Shown one piece after another: positions 6,460 through 58,662 of a stretch of 64,000 nt of DNA. The position numbers were made by a program, and so were the translations under genes. Numbering within the stretch: position 1 is the stretch's first letter; the number at the start of each line of letters is the position of its first letter. The stretch lies in the UHGV virus genome UHGV-0038496; one strand, given 5' to 3'. Under the pieces are notes generated by a model. The model saw nothing but the letters and a program-made list of their open reading frames with translations. It was not told the DNA's origin and ran no database searches. Origin of the DNA: a virus.

Positions 6460-7186
6460 TGAGTTTGCTCCTTACAACGGGTTCGTTGGCTTCAAATACT
6501 GCTAATGCCCAACCACGAGGTGTCAGGCTCCTGATCATTTTGGTACGAGGAGATTTTCCTCCCAGCTTGGTATGTTGGAAAGAATACCCATTTACATCAC
6601 AAATCTGCGGCACAGGTCGTTTCTCAGGGACAACAAAACCATTTCCGAACCATCCACAGGTTAGCTTCGGATAAGCATCCCTGGGCTTAATCAGGTCAGG
6701 GAACCACGGGTTCTGATCGTCTTCCGGCAGATAGCCACCATACTCATACGGATGGAACTTGTAGTCCGGTTTACGCCACATATTGGACATAACACCAACA
6801 GGGTTCTCCACATGCCACGGACAATTATACATGTTACCCAGCGTTTCTGCAATACGTGCATCTTTTACAGCATTGACCTGAATCAACGGATCTTTTTGTA
6901 GTTTTTTCTTGAAATGCGCTGCCCCAGATACCGCTAAGTGGGTACATGGTGGAAACGACAGGATGAAATCTGGTGCAGGATACATCCCCAGGGTTTCTTG
7001 TGGAAACCACGGGTCAATCCAGTAGTCGATGTACTGAATGTTAGGGTGTTCCTCTACTACCTCTGCATAGCTCCCGTGATCTGCCCCTTCTGCGTTGAAG
7101 CAGAAGCACAGATACCCTGCATCAGCCCAGGGTTTGACAGCAATATCAGAGCCATTGAATAATGCCCACACTACGCCTTGCTTCAT
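6452..7186 (-). CDS. hypothetical protein (about 244 aa)
   Basis: Track ORF 6452..7258 trimmed to the ATG at 7184-7186 (MKQGVVWALFNG...) because it has an RBS GGAGGG 9 nt upstream and the longer reading frame runs through a terminator hairpin. Confidence 0.5.
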   Translation of the reverse strand: MKQGVVWALFNGSDIAVKPWADAGYLCFCFNAEGADHGSYAEVVEEHPNIQYIDYWIDPWFPQETLGMYPAPDFILSFPPCTHLAVSGAAHFKKKLQKDPLIQVNAVKDARIAETLGNMYNCPWHVENPVGVMSNMWRKPDYKFHPYEYGGYLPEDDQNPWFPDLIKPRDAYPKLTCGWFGNGFVVPEKRPVPQICDVNGYSFQHTKLGGKSPRTKMIRSLTPRGWALAVFEANEPVVRSKLNG

Positions 7187-11341: not shown

Positions 11342-13353
11342 TATTCAGTCTCCTTCTTAGCTTTCATTAATTCAATATATTCAACAACTTCTGGTTTATC
11401 CCAGTAATCCCCCTGGATGCGTTTCAGCAACGGGTAGCGTTTGTATACACCATCCATGTAGCGACGAGCACATTTCACATGAAGGTTCACAAGATGATCT
11501 GCTCTGTCAGCCAGATCCCTATACTTCCACGAGTAGCATCCCATCCACATACGGACCTTATACTTGTTTTCTTTTACTTCTGGGTCAATGCACATTTTCA
11601 CACCGAGTTTTCCCAGTTGCATTTTATATTTTGTGTAACCTGTTGTGTTTGCAGCTTTCATCAAAAGCCAGTTCCAGGCATCCTGTTCCAGAACAGGTTT
11701 TGCATCAACCTCTGTGATAATTCTACAATCTTCTGTCACCCATGTCAAGCGACTTTCAGCAACCATGTAAACATCTTCATCCTGTGGGATACCAAAGGCT
11801 TCACGGAAGACCACCGGATCCTGTTGGTAGATGTTATTGTTTTCACCCAACCAACTGCGGCCTCTCTGGATATCACCATCATACGGGATGCAGTATTTTA
11901 TATCTTTAAAATCCTGCTTACTGATGCGTTCGCGGCAGAACCAACCGTGTTCATCCATCTTTTTGACATAATAGCCCGGTTGATACGTGCTCGCCTGGCA
12001 TTGGTCTTTTGGTGGCTTAGGTAGCTCAGACAGTAGATACAGCACGTCACTGTAGAACGGATCGTTCACATATTTAGCCAGCTCCTCTGACAGGTACGGG
12101 TCTTCCACATAGTAGACGTTGCGGCCTGTCTCATTAGCCAGATAGTTACATTTAATCCGGTTGAACTTACCGTTTGCGTCATTCAGTACCAGCTTACGGC
12201 CTGCTGAAAACTCTGAAGGGCCGTACATATCTCGTTTCAGAGAGTTAGCACCAATCCGAGTACCACCTACGAACACAGGCAACTCATTGATGACTGGGAC
12301 AGTACGACCTTGCATAATGGCTTTCCATTTAGCAGTCATGAACTTCCAGCCCACCAGACGCGAGAAGAAACCACCAGACTCTTTAATGATACGACGGGCT
12401 TCAACCCCAGAAGTGGCCTTATTCAGCAGCACTTCAATCTCTTCACCACGTTTACTGATACCTTCATCCACAAAGGCTTTCAGCTGTTCGAGGAACCCAC
12501 CATCATCATCACCCTCAATCGTCCATTCACGGCCAAGGTTGATATCGCAATCGCCAATCGGAATCTCTACCACCAGGCGCGGATAATCTACCAGAGATTC
12601 AAGATACTCTGAACGATAAGGTTGGTGACCCATCACAACACGGCTTTCCATAGAGCAAGTATTGCCGTGGTAGATGTACAGAGTCCATCCACCTTTTTTG
12701 TATGTGTAGTCAACGTTGCTTCTAAATTGCTCCAGCATCCGTGTGGTGATCGGATCCGACACCTCGAACGGAAACTTAGCATAGTTCAGGCATGAAGCTA
12801 TCGCATGGCGATACGCAGACACATCCCTTTTGCTCACAGGGAACCGGATTGTGATGCCGTTATGCTGCGTAGAAGGCTCGCTACGCGTCTTAGTGACTTT
12901 CGGTATACCTTTGTCCATAAAGACAAGATATTCGCTTCTTGTGCCGTTATAGACGCTTATAACGTTAAAGGCTTCTACCTTGCTCAGAGGTGCTTTTGAG
13001 CCAATGCCTTTGGCACCTACCAGCTCATTACTCTGGCGCTTAGTGGAGTCGCCCAACGTCATAAAAATTGTGCGTACAGTCTCTTCAGACATGCCGAGGC
13101 CTTCATCCTGCACAGAGAAGTAAGGCTCAAGGTCGGTTGGTGTATGGATCTTGATAGGCACATCTTTACGACCTGCTTCAACATGAGCATCCACAGCATT
13201 GAAGATAGGCTCACGACAGGAAGCGAGTAAAGGATCTTTGTAAATACCTTTGATAATCAGGCCAAACGTCTCCGCATTCAGCGCGATTGTCCCTGTGGTA
13301 ACTTCACTCTTACCGAGAATGTTTGCTTCTTTATGGTCACTTTTAATAATCAT
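11341..13353 (-). CDS. rIIA-like protein with N-terminal GHKL-type ATPase fold
   Basis: N-terminal MIIKSD..., then GHKL boxes NAVDAH, DEGLGM, GAKGIGSKA; 670 aa, similar in size to T4 rIIA (about 725 aa, from memory). Confidence 0.55.
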   Translation of the reverse strand: MIIKSDHKEANILGKSEVTTGTIALNAETFGLIIKGIYKDPLLASCREPIFNAVDAHVEAGRKDVPIKIHTPTDLEPYFSVQDEGLGMSEETVRTIFMTLGDSTKRQSNELVGAKGIGSKAPLSKVEAFNVISVYNGTRSEYLVFMDKGIPKVTKTRSEPSTQHNGITIRFPVSKRDVSAYRHAIASCLNYAKFPFEVSDPITTRMLEQFRSNVDYTYKKGGWTLYIYHGNTCSMESRVVMGHQPYRSEYLESLVDYPRLVVEIPIGDCDINLGREWTIEGDDDGGFLEQLKAFVDEGISKRGEEIEVLLNKATSGVEARRIIKESGGFFSRLVGWKFMTAKWKAIMQGRTVPVINELPVFVGGTRIGANSLKRDMYGPSEFSAGRKLVLNDANGKFNRIKCNYLANETGRNVYYVEDPYLSEELAKYVNDPFYSDVLYLLSELPKPPKDQCQASTYQPGYYVKKMDEHGWFCRERISKQDFKDIKYCIPYDGDIQRGRSWLGENNNIYQQDPVVFREAFGIPQDEDVYMVAESRLTWVTEDCRIITEVDAKPVLEQDAWNWLLMKAANTTGYTKYKMQLGKLGVKMCIDPEVKENKYKVRMWMGCYSWKYRDLADRADHLVNLHVKCARRYMDGVYKRYPLLKRIQGDYWDKPEVVEYIELMKAKKETE

Positions 13354-52979: not shown

Positions 52980-54088
52980 TTAGTTAGTAGGACTTGCAAA
53001 CAGGTTAATATCTTTCCAATTTTCCCATTCAAATCTTGCATCCAGCATTTCTTCGAACTGAGCAGCGTCAAACTCGATTGTAATTTTACCCTCACCAACT
53101 TCCAGAGGAATTGGAGGAATTTCGAAGGATGGTAACGGATCCAAAGGTGTACTTGGAGTTGGATTAGCTCTGTAGGTAATCGGGTTAAGCATACGGTAAT
53201 CCAGGCCAAGGAAAGATGAAATGCCGTTAACACCATCGACAAGCCACTGCGGATGTTTGGTCACGTCAGTTTCCTGGTGGTAGTTTTGCATCCAATCATC
53301 CAACATACCAGCACCTTCGTACCCCATGTAGCCCAGAGCTAATGGTCCTTTCCATTTCCACAGTCCACCAAGTAACCGTGCAAACAATCCTTTCTTAGCC
53401 ATGGCTGCTGCACCACCCGCAGCTGCACCACCTGCGGCGGCACCACCGAGAGCACCTGCAACACCTCCGGCAGCTTTAATCATACCCAGGGTTGCGGCAA
53501 CAGCTTTGACGATTCTCAGCAATTTCCATACGGCGTTAACAACAACTAAGATGGAGAAAGCATAGCCTACCCATTTAGCTTTGCTGAATGTTTCATCAAC
53601 AGTGTCACTTGTATCTTTGACTTCTTTTTTCAGCAGACCAAAGTGGTCTTTGACTTGCAACCACCAGATACGGATACTGACAATCGTGTTGTTCAATTCA
53701 CCAACAATGTCGTTCAGACCCTGGATAAATCCAGATACAAACTCACCAGCCTGCATGATCATTGGGGTGAATGTTTCTCCTGTGCGGATCAGGGTGTAAT
53801 AAAACTCGGTGAGTTCATCTGACCATGTGGTGAACAGTTTTTGTTTAGTCAATTCGATGAAAGTTTTCAAACGGTTTTCAGCCAGAACGTTAGATTTCTG
53901 CATACGTTCATAACCAGCAGCTGACGCTTCGTTCATGTACTTAGCAACGTATTTCATCATTTTGGCTGTTTTGACCTGGCCTTTCTGCATCATGTCCATG
54001 AATTGTTCCATAGACAGCTCAGACAGGTTGAAAGCCTCTTTTGTTGCTTTAATGAACGGCTCGTAAGCACCTGGCATTGCTTCAGCTA
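52980..54088 (-). CDS. tail tape measure protein, exon 2
   Basis: Track ORF is TTG-initiated with an in-frame stop just upstream at 54108-54110; contains a Gly/Ala-rich hydrophobic segment (GGVAGALGGAAAGGAAAGGAAAMAKKG) typical of tape measure proteins; predicted 3' splice site after G at 54089. Confidence 0.6.
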
Positions 54089-54917
54089 CCAATGTCCAGA
54101 CAGTTCGCTACGCTGTCCCGGTGTGCTAAGACACCCGCCACACATTTCTGTGTGGAGCAGACTATATCTTCTCTGGATAACCAGAGCCAACCATTTCAGA
54201 GGCGCTTGCCTCTTACACCGCTACACTCATCACGGTTAGTCGTTGAGCACATAACTTATAAATCTTTCAGCAGTTTAGACCATGCTTTCTTAGTCTTGAT
54301 TCGAACAATTGCTGATCTGCAAGCACCAAATTCTTCCATCAAATCTGTTGTATTCTCAAACCGCCTGTTATAAATTTCGATAACCTCTTCTGCTGTGAGC
54401 TTATGATTGGCATTTGACTCACCAGAGGCATCATTCAGGCCATTTGCAAAAGCATGTTTCTGATTGCCAGATCGAGTAACATACTCCAGATTATCTTTAT
54501 GGTTGTTTGCTTTATTACCGTCCTTATGGTTAACTTCCATCCCAGGTTGTGGAGGTTCACCAAGGAAAGTAAGGGCAACTATTCTGTGAACAAGATACAA
54601 CACACATTTGCCGTTTACCCGAAAGTAAACGCGTTTGTAACCATTGTGTATTGTCTGCTCAGTCAACTGCTTCCGTGTGTTTCTTCTTGTAGAGAATATT
54701 GCACCGTCCTCTCTACAGAAGTACCCATCGTGACCAGGAACTGGTCGGATTTCTAAGTTACTTCGCTGCGGATTATCCATTGTTACATCCTCCAAACTTT
54801 TTACCATACCCCGAGTAGTTACTTCGGGCCATAAACATGTTACCACATTTATTTGGTATTTGGAAGGCTTTAGGAGCTTCCCGCAATTAGGTTGGTTTTA
54901 TAACAGCTAGTATGTCA
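54089..54917 (-). mobile_element. group I intron (about 0.83 kb) in the tape measure gene, carrying an HNH ORF
   Basis: Read on the minus strand: P-like AATTGCGGGAAGC (rc of 54876-54888), Q AATCCGCAGC (rc of 54765-54774), R-like TCAACGACTAA (rc of 54236-54246), S AAGATATAGTCT (rc of 54159-54170). Candidate P1: exon AACAGU pairs with intron GCUGUU, with U-G at the splice site. Intron 3' end GGACAUUGG is homologous to the polymerase intron 3' end GAACAUGUG. Boundaries predicted only. Confidence 0.65.
54256..54780 (-). CDS. intron-encoded HNH homing endonuclease (paralogue of the 1250..1756 product)
   Basis: HNH_3 motif VHRIVALTF...VNHKDGNKANNHKDNLEYVT...NQKHA; shared LTAEEVIEI block; start taken as ATG at 54778-54780 with RBS GGAGGA (track ORF extends upstream to 54846). 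Confidence 0.8.
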   Translation of the reverse strand: MDNPQRSNLEIRPVPGHDGYFCREDGAIFSTRRNTRKQLTEQTIHNGYKRVYFRVNGKCVLYLVHRIVALTFLGEPPQPGMEVNHKDGNKANNHKDNLEYVTRSGNQKHAFANGLNDASGESNANHKLTAEEVIEIYNRRFENTTDLMEEFGACRSAIVRIKTKKAWSKLLKDL

Positions 54918-56142
54918 ACTGTTGTTTTAGTTCCTCAGACATTACCTGTCCTTTACCAAGCATTTGCTGTATCGCCATAATACCACGCTGATATTTTACT
55001 TCATCAGCACCATATGACGCAGCATATTGCGAATAAGCAGAGAACAGATCACGGACTTCCTGCCCTGTCATTTGGTTTTTGGCGTTTACTGCCATTTGAG
55101 AGTAGCCTTGCAGACCTGATTTCAGGTCGAAGCCTAATCTCATAGCTTCACCTTGTACGAATGCAACTTCCGAGTTAGCTTTCGTAGGATCACCCATAAC
55201 GTTGGTAAGAGCAGCACTCGCACCTTCCATCATGTGACCGGATTTGTTAACACTGACAATTGCAGAGAATGCGGTGTACGCTTTAGTCAAATCCATGACT
55301 GTTGTTCTTAATTTATTAAAAGCGGTGCTCAGAGTCATGGTTCCAGCAGCAGCATTAGCAAACCCCTTCTGCATTGCAGCGATCTGGGCGTTGAAAGTTG
55401 ACTTACCTATCAACCCTTTTGCATATTGCTGTTCAACCTGACGGTAGCCACCTAACATATCCCTAAAATTAGCCCCATAACGAGCTGTCAGACGCGTTGA
55501 CATGTTGGTAAGGTGTGTTAGCCTATCCATACCCACATTATTGCGTTTGGGCGTTCCTGAGCTGCCATTTTGCTTGTGCCATCTGTTCATTGCAGCAGTC
55601 TGGGCACGAACAAGTGCTGGGTTGGAAGCTACACCACCCATGTTGGGGTTACCTGGGATATATCTGAAGGTATTTGCTCTGGACAGAGCACGGGGTGAGA
55701 CTGGTTTGTTGGAGAAGTAGGAACTACCTAAGCCACCACTTTTCTTAGCCAGTTTGGATTGTTCCTGATAGAATTTACGCATTCTCACCAATTCAGGATC
55801 TTTGGCAGTCATCTGACCGACAACCTGTTTCCTTCTGGCGTTCTCACGTTTTTCTATCGCAGATCGTACAGCAGCTTCACGTTTAGCCTGGGATACAGCT
55901 TCCTGATGCATACGGCGTTGCTGTTGCAACTGTTTATTCTGTACCCTCTGAACAATCTGACCAGTCTTCTCCATCGATGCTTGCCAGGCTTTCAGAGGAT
56001 TCCCCTTTCCCAAAGAATCGCCCAGCTTTGTAAACTCCCTGCCTAATCCTTTAATTCTTTCAATAGCTTTTTTATAGCTATTGTTATCGATCTCAAATGT
56101 AATTCGGTTTGTGGTTGTGGCAACCACTTTGTTACCAGCCAT
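54918..56142 (-). CDS. tail tape measure protein, exon 1
   Basis: Long alpha-helical, Q/A/K-rich N-terminal region; RBS AGGAGAG before ATG at 56142; the track ORF continues three codons into the intron to a TAG at 54907. Confidence 0.6.
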
Positions 56143-56969: not shown

Positions 56970-56998
56970 ATTATAGCATTGTACTCACTTTTTGTCAA
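56970..56998 (-). promoter_or_regulatory. consensus sigma70 promoter (TTGACA, 17-nt spacer, TGC-TATAAT) followed by a short inverted repeat
   Basis: Read on the minus strand: TTGACA (rc of 56993-56998), 17 nt, TATAAT (rc of 56970-56975) preceded by TGC; the hairpin ATGCG-ATAA-CGCAT lies at about +5 to +20. Confidence 0.6.
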
Positions 56999-57008
56999 TG
57001 CAAACAGA

Positions 57009-57026
57009 AAGCCTCCGAAGAGGCTT
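57009..57026 (-). terminator. rho-independent terminator overlapping the nuclease stop codon
   Basis: AAGCCTC-CGAA-GAGGCTT hairpin followed on the minus strand by TTTCTGTTTG. Confidence 0.55.
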
Positions 57027-58563
57027 ATAACCACTTAGCTCTCCATACCCATTTAATCTTACCACTATCCCACAACCGGATAGCCCCAACCAAATCTTCT
57101 ATCTCCCGCTCTGTACGAGGATCAATAGACTTATCTGGGTTGAAGTCTACATCAGATCTGCCAATCTCCTCCAGACGTTTAGGAATCAATCGACGTTGCC
57201 AGTGTGGTTTCGGACGCAAACCATTAGCAGGGTGGAATACTCTGTAGTCAGGTTTGCCATACGTTTCAGCAACAAATCCCAACACTTCATAAACCCCACC
57301 AGCGAAGTAGTCATTCATACTGAATGAACTAACCTCTTCTGGATTATTCTCCCTGATAAACGTTTTAAACAGTCTAGATGCCCCACCACGAACAGAACAG
57401 CTTGATGCAAATCTTGATAACTCCCATGTTGCCTTAGTCGTACCGTTAGCTCTGGCCTGACCTCTCGTAGTTTTACCGTAGCCGAAGCTCATGATTGCTA
57501 CAATTTCACCTTCTTTCGTTTTCAGAGCCAGATTGATAGGGTTAGGAGAATGGCCCTGCGGGTGGTAAGCGTCGTAAAACTCTTTGCACTCTATTGATTT
57601 TAGATGCACAACTTCACACTCCCTGGCATTTACTTTACGCTCACCATTACACCCCAAAGCATGAGCCAGCAACTGGCTGAACACTTTCTGGTTGTTATCC
57701 CAATCATAGTCCGTGATCTGGATCAGGCGAATACCTTTCTCTTTACAGGCTAACCACTTGTTGTAATGGTAGTCTTTAGACTTATGATTATCACCATGCC
57801 AGAAGACACCGTTAACTTCAATCGCCACACGTTTTGATGGGACAAAGATATCTAACTCTTTGCCATCATCCAAGATAGTGCGGTTAGACTGCTCCGCGTC
57901 TGGACAGATAGATTTTACAAAGTCAAAGACAGATCCTTCCACTTTAGAAGTCAATTTTGCACAATGCCTGCACCCATGACCTCTGTGAATGTGTTCTTTC
58001 ACAGGCTGTTGGAACTCTGATCCACATTTTGTGCATTCAATATTGAGAATGCCTTTCTTCCTTTCATCATAAAACATACTTTTGTAAACGTATTTATCTT
58101 TGTGGACCTCTTTAGCTTGTTCCACAACTTCTTCAAAAGAGTTTCTGCTTTTTCTACCACGAGTCATGTTAGCACAACGAGGGCAGCCCTGTCCTCTCAA
58201 ATGTTTGCTAGGTTTTTGTGAGAACACGCCGTGGTCAGGGCAAATAATGTTCACATTTGTCACTCTATCTTTATACACAACCTCAGAGTAATCGTAACGA
58301 TCACCATGTTTTTCTTTGGCCTTTTCGATAAATTCTTCCCTGTTTCCACGTTTACGCTCAAGGTAACATTCTTTGCACCCCTCCCCTTTTCTGTGAGCAT
58401 TCGCTTCTACCGAAAACACGCCATGTTTTTTGCAAATAATGTTAACTTTTTCTCTGCTACCTTTGTACTCAGTTTGACTGTAATCATACATTTCTTCAAA
58501 CTCAGGGTTTTCTTTGAAGACGGCTGTTAGCCATTCTTCTTTTGTATAACCTTTTCCAGCCAT
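57025..58563 (-). CDS. putative homing-type endonuclease: three tandem zinc-ribbon-like repeats plus Vsr-like PD-(D/E)xK nuclease domain
   Basis: Three roughly 45-aa repeats (Y.YS...Y......NIICP.HGVF......H..G.GC..C); nuclease-like block DIFVPSKRVAIEVNGVFWHGDNH resembling the FVDGCFWHGH core of Vsr (from memory); start set at ATG 58561-58563 (MAGKGYTKEEW...) with RBS AGGAG. Confidence 0.65.
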   Translation of the reverse strand: MAGKGYTKEEWLTAVFKENPEFEEMYDYSQTEYKGSREKVNIICKKHGVFSVEANAHRKGEGCKECYLERKRGNREEFIEKAKEKHGDRYDYSEVVYKDRVTNVNIICPDHGVFSQKPSKHLRGQGCPRCANMTRGRKSRNSFEEVVEQAKEVHKDKYVYKSMFYDERKKGILNIECTKCGSEFQQPVKEHIHRGHGCRHCAKLTSKVEGSVFDFVKSICPDAEQSNRTILDDGKELDIFVPSKRVAIEVNGVFWHGDNHKSKDYHYNKWLACKEKGIRLIQITDYDWDNNQKVFSQLLAHALGCNGERKVNARECEVVHLKSIECKEFYDAYHPQGHSPNPINLALKTKEGEIVAIMSFGYGKTTRGQARANGTTKATWELSRFASSCSVRGGASRLFKTFIRENNPEEVSSFSMNDYFAGGVYEVLGFVAETYGKPDYRVFHPANGLRPKPHWQRRLIPKRLEEIGRSDVDFNPDKSIDPRTEREIEDLVGAIRLWDSGKIKWVWRAKWL

Positions 58564-58596
58564 CGAAAAACTCCTAGTAGTTTTAAACACAGGGGA

Positions 58597-58626
58597 ACTA
58601 TACCACAAAACATTAGCTTTTGTCAA
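58597..58626 (-). promoter_or_regulatory. sigma70-like promoter with extended -10 (TTGACA, 18-nt spacer, TGG-TATAGT)
   Basis: Read on the minus strand: TTGACA (rc of 58621-58626), 18 nt, GTGGTATAGT (TATAGT = rc of 58597-58602); about 30 nt upstream of the nuclease RBS. Confidence 0.55.
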
Positions 58627-58642
58627 ACCCTATAAACAAGAA

Positions 58643-58662
58643 AGGCCACCCGAAGGTGGCCT
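58643..58662 (-). terminator. rho-independent terminator after the tail tube gene
   Basis: AGGCCACC-CGAA-GGTGGCCT hairpin followed on the minus strand by TTTCTTGTTTATAG. Confidence 0.7.

Follow-up and report, generated by a model that had tools for sequence, protein, structure and literature searches.

A probable Hef-type homing endonuclease gene with a Mom-like domain at the tail tube-chaperone junction of an rV5-like phage

The cassette, its flanks and its expression signals

We analysed a 64,000-nucleotide stretch of viral DNA (UHGV virus genome UHGV-0038496, hereafter the window), focusing on a 512-residue protein encoded on its minus strand between the genes for the tail tube and the tail assembly chaperone. 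The protein combines an array of zinc fingers, a Vsr-like nuclease domain and a C-terminal domain related to Mom of phage Mu, and we consider it a probable homing endonuclease. A nuclease cassette at this position had been proposed in a first-pass annotation made from the sequence alone, and this is borne out by the open reading frame (ORF) itself and by its flanks, which match the Pfam families PF11681 and PF21822 (Table 1). The surrounding ORF extends from 58626 to 57025 (-), with the ATG at 58563 as the likely start, giving 512 residues. As a whole the protein matches PHROG 559 and, at 1.9e-70, PHROG 3339 ("homing endonuclease").

The promoters and terminators listed in the first-pass annotation were all recovered in a consensus scan. 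Consensus promoter sites with at least 11 of 12 matches number 15 in the window, so such matches alone are not rare, and the four terminators counted there compare with 2.6 expected from shuffled sequences. P1 and P2 are, however, the only promoters of the window that lie directly 3′ of a stem-loop, and both are kept in relatives. The terminator of the tube gene begins 7 nt past the tube stop codon and is found in occupied and empty relatives alike. The cassette terminator follows the genes of one lineage of the family (lineage A, see below) and is missing after those of the other (lineage B). P2 restarts transcription into the chaperone gene, and a counterpart, TTGACA-17-TAAAAT, is found in empty Vequintavirus sites. 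Base composition gives little signal, with 42.4% GC in the cassette against 44.8% in the window, and no second copy of the nuclease family was found within the window.

Table 1. Features of the nuclease cassette and its neighbours in the window, followed by the occupants of the tube-chaperone site in related contigs
Feature	Positions	Strand	Remarks
Nuclease gene	57025..58563	(-)	512 aa plus stop; PHROG 559 match at 4.9e-103, residues 6-510
Three tandem treble-clef zinc-finger repeats, residues 8-205	57949..58542	(-)	Pfam DUF4379/DUF723, repeat z-scores
Vsr-like (EDxHD / I-Bth0305I-type) nuclease domain, residues 206-305	57649..57948	(-)	
Mom-like GNAT domain, residues 306-512 (~207 aa)	57028..57648	(-)	
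Shine-Dalgarno AGGAG	58571..58575	(-)	7 nt 5′ of the ATG; read from the sequence
Promoter P1, TTGACA-18-(TG)TATAGT	58597..58626	(-)	11/12 consensus matches
Cassette terminator	57009..57026	(-)	overlaps the nuclease stop codon; consensus scan
Promoter P2, TTGACA-17-(TG)TATAAT	56970..56998	(-)	12/12 matches; 48 nt 5′ of the chaperone gene
Intrinsic terminator of the tube gene	58643..58662	(-)	8-bp stem with 6 GC pairs, TTCG loop; consensus scan
Tail tube gene, upstream neighbour, 157 aa	58669..59142	(-)	Pfam PF11681, 4e-8
Tail assembly chaperone gene, downstream neighbour, 154 aa	56458..56922	(-)	Pfam PF21822, 6e-24
Site in L007, L008, L002			lineage A, 90-93% identical to the window protein
Site in L003 (L004 same protein) and first gene of L005			lineage A with replaced finger array (42% identity; 90-96% in nuclease and Mom-like domains)
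Site in L009, L010			lineage B only
Site in L005	8001-11503 (L005)		A and B in tandem: 515-aa lineage-A gene, 621-aa lineage-B gene
Site in L006			lineage A, 57% identical to the window protein; sheath only 62-63% identical
Site in L022			lineage B; sheath only 62-63% identical

Domain composition and family of the protein

The finger array carries C-x2-[HC]-G...G-C-x2-C cores at residues 44-66, 108-130 and 177-201. Three tandem zinc-ribbon-like repeats had been noticed at the outset, and neighbouring repeats do resemble each other far beyond shuffled sequences (z=18.8 for the first and second, 18.9 for the second and third, only 3.7 for the first and third), though the period of this unit, a helix and a zinc knuckle, is 64-69 residues rather than the 45 or so first given. 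The module had been thought not to be placeable in a known family, which did not hold: its repeats are DUF4379/DUF723 fingers of phage homing endonucleases (PMC10055350), with DUF4379 ("probable treble clef zinc finger") scoring 37.3 bits against a Pfam cut-off of 24.5 and DUF723 matching weakly. Among 43 homologues the positions C44/H47/C63/C66, C108/H111/C127/C130 and C177/C198/C201 are invariant or nearly so, C180 being unlisted. We predict that the array is a sequence-reading, DNA-binding module; repeated DUF723/DUF4379/CapR fingers are the DNA-binding modules of phage homing endonucleases, and the repeats recombine (Barth et al., PMC10055350).

The array is also swapped as a block. In the related contigs L003 (8001-8645) and L005 (8001-8623) the segment corresponding to 57949-58596 of the window encodes fingers with 42% amino acid identity to those of the window protein, while the rest of the gene keeps ~91% nucleotide identity, a difference that implies a putative change of DNA specificity through domain swapping. 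A separate example of the module occurs in the more distant relative L006 (2840-3985), where DUF723/DUF4379 fingers are joined to a T5orf172 (GIY-YIG-type) homing endonuclease between the capsid and adaptor genes, and thus to another nuclease in the same structural block.

For the nuclease and C-terminal regions the domain assignment needed profiles and structure prediction. Single-sequence searches of Pfam, NCBIfam and PDB gave Vsr and 3r3p matches below threshold only, but a profile of 19 homologues of the nuclease domain matched the catalytic domain of I-Bth0305I (PDB ID: 3r3p) at E=3.1e-10, with Vsr entries next at E of about 0.5. Residues 206-305 contain the Vsr-like PD-(D/E)xK-type catalytic fold, and the proposal of a Vsr-type core of the EDxHD homing class, made originally for the block DIFVPSKRVAIEVNGVFWHGDNH (residues 238-260), was supported. 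The predicted active-site residues are E209, D238, N251, H256 and H266, the first four aligning with E170, D196, N208 and H213 of I-Bth0305I. In the homologue alignments E209, D238, E249, W255 and H256 are invariant, N251 is nearly so, and D258, two residues past H256, is likewise nearly invariant. The HEase model of PADLOC also matches the protein (E=2e-5). Membership of the core in the Vsr-like EDxHD homing endonuclease family is supported; the label "HNH endonuclease" attached to PHROG 559 was rejected, as the HNH motif is absent and the fold is Vsr-like.

The C-terminal extension, also described at first as not placeable, proved to be a Mom-like GNAT domain. Foldseek ranks phage Mu Mom first among PDB structures (PDB ID: 8bv8, chain A; E=1.2e-5, 211 aligned columns against a 222-residue chain, target TM score 0.53), and the predicted model places helices 452-466 and 485-491 between strands, which is the Mom-type insertion between the last GNAT strands. 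Sequence comparison reaches the same family only through alignments. Single-sequence searches of Pfam, NCBIfam and PDB gave no match for the C-terminal 210 residues, a profile of the domain found only GCN5 among PDB sequences (E=0.35), and hhalign against Mu Mom alone was insignificant (E=0.21), whereas against an alignment of 29 Mom homologues it gave E=2.3e-5 with a probability of 76%. The window protein itself does not match the Pfam Mom family (PF25680), yet its full-length homologue P0042 passes the threshold (35.2 against 27.1 bits). Because of this combination, together with the profile-profile result, we describe the domain as a divergent relative of Mom and do not call it a member of PF25680. 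Equivalent residues in Mom and the window protein are H58/H334, R111/R384, S124/S396, Y159/Y425, D178/D439 and H183/H444. Mom D149 and R151, reported as needed for activity (PMC13219725, which is also the source for the roles of R111 and S124), align with M416 and D418 and so are not kept.

In comparisons with five relatives, every domain that allowed computation of the ratio of nonsynonymous to synonymous substitution rates (dN/dS) gave 0.03-0.12, and the Mom-like domain is the most constrained part of the protein (0.03-0.10). These values and the invariant catalytic residues are not those of a decaying gene. As for its role, the conserved Mom-like domain probably either helps the protein to bind DNA or flip bases, or is itself a DNA-modifying domain.

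The family is widespread among phages. A tblastn search returned 941 matching phage records, 138 of them over at least 80% of the protein with a best identity of ~40%, and many of the 941 are annotated as homing endonuclease or Hef-like homing endonuclease. The nuclease domain alone matches Hef-like or homing endonuclease genes of Acj9, PA5oct and Dickeya phage (F-LimX), as well as three Acinetobacter phage genes labelled "putative nuclease/acetyltransferase protein". The Mom-like domain alone matches Hef-like genes of the Campylobacter phages CP220, CP8 and PC5, at 9-11 places per genome, and the family reaches up to 9-12 copies per genome in Campylobacter phages. Hef-type endonucleases have been placed in the EDxHD family (Taylor et al. 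2011, PMC3239194), and a review names nrdB as a target cut by the Hef of phage U5 (PMC2988022). Independently, Mom domains fused to nucleases of the restriction endonuclease (REase) fold have been described in jumbo phages and read as restriction-modification-like, with five momylating enzymes attributed to PA5oct (Iyer et al. 2021, PMC7824862). Five places in PA5oct match our nuclease domain, the best of them annotated Hef-like. The "Hef-like homing endonucleases" and the proteins described as Mom fused to a restriction-fold nuclease are one family; our literature searches returned no paper linking the two.

This identity bears on what the Mom-like domain might do. It would be rather surprising, though conceivable, if Hef-type enzymes were bifunctional, with the Mom-like domain acting as a DNA (or tRNA-dependent) acyl or aminoacyl transferase on adenines within or close to the sequence that the enzyme itself recognises. 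A genome carrying such a gene would then be immune through modification rather than through sequence difference, the homing endonuclease would have a built-in modification arm, and the literature on Hef would be linked to that on Mom-REase fusions. We also think it unlikely that the protein is a single-chain weapon of the restriction-modification kind, in which the Mom-like domain would modify the phage's own adenines and the Vsr-like domain attack unmodified DNA of host or competitor. Iyer et al. (2021) predict such a function for Mom-REase fusions, with five enzymes counted in PA5oct and the five matching places noted above, and the strong constraint on the domain, the retained counterparts of H58, R111, S124, Y159, D178 and H183, the early-type sigma-70 promoter on the gene and the presence of a family member at the tube-chaperone site of every close relative all agree with it. 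Against this stand the replacement of D149 and R151, and the many copies per genome with different finger arrays, which are hard to reconcile with genome-wide protection. Moreover, homing genes typically show a site-specific insertion polymorphism and alleles that displace one another at a single site, as seen here.

Occupied and empty sites in related phages

The window belongs to a relative of the Vequintavirus (rV5-like) coliphages, with ~79% DNA identity in the tube gene and 90% and 71% identity in the tube and sheath proteins. Its closest relatives, surveyed in 16 IMG/VR loci and in Logan/ENA contigs, are metagenome contigs only (34-141 kb), with sheath proteins 92-96% identical; the tube protein is 90-97% identical to those of relatives. 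At the tube-chaperone site the contigs hold genes of two lineages, A, to which the window protein belongs, and B, at about 34% identity to it (Table 1). Both lineages, the tandem pair and the finger-swapped hybrids are all seen in phages that share 95-97% identity in the tube protein. The first-pass annotation had taken presence in all relatives as the mark of a core gene; in a narrow sense such presence is what we find, since the genus-level relatives found are all occupied, but the alleles are non-orthologous, which therefore argues for turnover. One contig, L002, has an extra 112-residue ORF 3′ of the nuclease gene (11642-11980) which has no Pfam match and is missing from the window.

Comparison of the alleles delimits the mobile unit. 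Nucleotide homology between the window and L009 or L010 ends at 58620, just past the -35 box of P1, and resumes at ~57002, at the second -35 box, therefore the unit spans ~57003-58619. Since the upstream terminator and the TTGACA -35 box also occur at empty sites, both belong to the locus, and what moves with the cassette is limited to the P1 spacer and -10 element, the gene and the second terminator. A discrete inserted cassette, as first described, is thus upheld, though not a fully self-contained one, and we rejected the idea that terminators of its own insulate it on either side. By sliding identity the window is L003-like in the tube and chaperone genes and L007-like in the fingers, with switches near 58650 and 57950, and the similarity profiles switch partner once more inside the chaperone gene.

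Comparison of related phages, which the first-pass annotation had proposed as a check on the presence or absence of the cassette, shows many empty sites farther out. Of 118 Vequintavirus records, 113 have the tube and chaperone genes adjoining without interruption, and in the other five the junction is split. We inspected three of the split records; an annotated ORF fills the site in JEP1 (540 residues) and in HMD-6 (541 residues), and in PDX the site has a long unannotated open frame. In JEP1, 1645 bp stand in place of the 6 bp CACGTT, directly 3′ of the TTGACA that follows the tube terminator, and the insert is of lineage B, 34% identical to the window protein. The gene is also missing from the distant relatives L015-L021, where the gap between tube and chaperone genes is ~80 nt (about 6471-6560). 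These empty sites make it extremely improbable that we are dealing with a core tail-assembly or structural gene whose similarity to nucleases is incidental, even though its position inside the tail gene block and its presence in all close relatives would fit one; the folds are those of a nuclease and a GNAT enzyme, and the gene comes with its own promoter and terminator. As empty sites exist in viable, isolated phages, the core tail gene was rejected.

As a clue to a target or immunity site, occupied Vequintavirus genomes were compared with empty ones over 450 bp on either flank, and the only fixed difference was the 6-bp segment that the insert displaces. Recognition may therefore extend across the insertion point, in which case insertion alone would confer immunity, a hypothesis that we put forward for lineage B only. 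The spacer of L015-L021 contains a conserved stem-loop (GCCACATGGATGTGGC) and no sigma-70-like promoters, so the terminator-promoter architecture appears to be specific to lineages that hosted the cassette, which suggests that the promoter-rich intergenic region was built by cassette traffic.

Other details of these sites can be recorded. Empty Vequintavirus sites (AlexBoehm; L001, 5887-5900) have an orphan TTGACA directly 3′ of the tube terminator, and they retain ~22 nt (CTTGAATTGCTTGAAAGGTTAA) with homology to the 3′-terminal codons of the lineage-B ORF (JEP1; L024, 2069/3715). Either the empty sites are deletion scars of a once-occupied site, or the last 7 codons of the inserted ORF are locus sequence. 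Several phage records of the series MG0656xx ('Campylobacter phage' A147, C2, D1 and others) are >98% identical to E. coli Vequintavirus in this region, and these records look mislabelled or contaminated.

The wider tail block has the tail sheath gene upstream of the cassette and the tape measure gene downstream, and the latter is itself interrupted, by an 829-nt insert at 54087-54915 (-) that separates the exon-like parts 56142..54916 and 54086..52980. The insert contains an HNH_3 endonuclease ORF (54846..54256, Pfam 2e-13), and its removal leaves a 777-residue frame collinear with the uninterrupted gene of L002, L003, L005 and L009; the insert is present in L007, L008 and L010 as well. Rfam gave no match in the window at gathering thresholds, and the insert matches a group I intron model over its full length below threshold (24.8 against 50 bits, E=6.6e-4). 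We take it to be a probable group I intron that encodes a homing endonuclease.

Homing as the preferred reading and comparison with known systems

Taken together, the evidence makes it likely that this is a free-standing Hef-type (Vsr-like, EDxHD) homing endonuclease gene, carried as a 1.6-kb cassette in the intergenic region that separates the tube and chaperone genes in an rV5-like myovirus. The data show the identities of the domains, the boundaries of the cassette, its presence/absence polymorphism, the replacement of alleles at a single site and purifying selection, whereas cleavage, the target and homing itself are inferred. Host RNA polymerase would transcribe it from a sigma-70-type promoter whose -35 element comes from the locus and whose -10 element comes from the cassette. 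The three zinc fingers would read a long DNA target, and the Vsr-like domain, through E209, D238 and H256, would cut, at or beside the insertion point, an allele of a co-infecting relative that lacks the cassette or holds a different occupant. Recombinational repair would then copy the cassette and neighbouring markers into the cut genome, where the cassette terminator and the consensus promoter downstream of it would keep the tail operon expressed.

Several observations weigh against homing. The fifth EDxHD position, D222 in I-Bth0305I, is His266 in most members and Asp in 1 of the 19 aligned. The 16 IMG/VR loci and the Logan/ENA contigs contained no genome of the window's own clade without a cassette (nine contigs, all occupied), no metagenome scan having been aimed at one, and the target site of this lineage can therefore not be named. 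Cleavage data for the exact three-part architecture were not found in the literature searched. Finally, the gene of L007, L008 and L002 has diverged in step with its flanks (~90% nucleotide identity throughout), and such co-divergence, with strong purifying selection, is also compatible with a beneficial gene long resident in the phage.

The last point leads to a different explanation, namely an accessory gene specific to the lineage and no longer mobile, inherited vertically with the tail module and serving as a competitor-exclusion nuclease or DNA-binding regulator derived from a homing endonuclease. Besides the collinearity and the purifying selection just mentioned, it would account for the lack of an empty site in the window's clade, and it has a precedent in domesticated, endonuclease-derived regulators with the same fingers (CapR; PMC10055350). 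It is difficult to square, however, with lineages only ~34% identical, a tandem pair and finger-swapped hybrids in phages with nearly the same tube protein, with invariant catalytic residues, or with clean junctions in the 5 of 118 Vequintavirus genomes that are occupied, and we regard it as improbable, slightly more so than a restriction-modification-like weapon.

Read as a homing endonuclease gene, the cassette is an ordinary one for a phage, and relatives are already so labelled by annotation pipelines. Its turnover at one site amounts to a natural experiment, in which the site is empty, holds A or B, holds a tandem, or holds a finger-swapped form, with junctions exactly at promoter elements, and it shows how such genes remodel operon regulation. 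In addition, recent work has identified Mom as a tRNA-dependent DNA aminoacyltransferase, and its conserved relative in a site-specific nuclease poses a concrete, testable question.

Among characterised enzymes, I-Bth0305I shares the catalytic fold and the sequence family. It is intron-encoded, with N-terminal NUMOD/helix-turn-helix (HTH) motifs and a C-terminal nuclease (PMC3239194), whereas the window protein is encoded by a free-standing gene, is predicted to read DNA with three fingers and has a central nuclease followed by a 207-residue GNAT domain. The N-terminal NUMOD/HTH region, a trait of the prototype and not of the catalytic family, is missing, and three DUF4379/DUF723 fingers stand in its place. 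Of the Hef-type and 'Hef-like' enzymes (U5 Hef; those of Acj9 and CP220; F-LimIII, VII, VIII and X of LIMEstone; PHROG 559 and 3339), the two PHROG families match the window protein over its full length at the profile level, and like the genes of this group the window gene is free-standing, intergenic and beside conserved structural genes; F-LimVIII of LIMEstone likewise adjoins a tail tube gene (PMC3296691). A Vequintavirus-related host lineage and the tube-chaperone site were not found described in the literature searched.

Two further groups share parts of the architecture. The T5orf172 (GIY-YIG) homing endonucleases of ICP1 and other phages have the CapR/DUF723/DUF4379 finger module in common with the window protein, and there too the repeats recombine and the nuclease genes lie at boundaries of genetic exchange (PMC10055350), but their catalytic domain is GIY-YIG rather than Vsr-like. 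Phage Mu Mom (PDB ID: 8bv8; PF25680), a tRNA-Gly-dependent DNA adenine N6 aminoacyltransferase, is a stand-alone enzyme, unlike the fused domain described here. The Mom-REase fusions of jumbo phages (Iyer et al. 2021) have the same combination of domains, and the PA5oct copies are one family with the window protein; they were read as restriction-modification-like, without a link to Hef, and the window phage, at ~135-140 kb, is not a jumbo phage.

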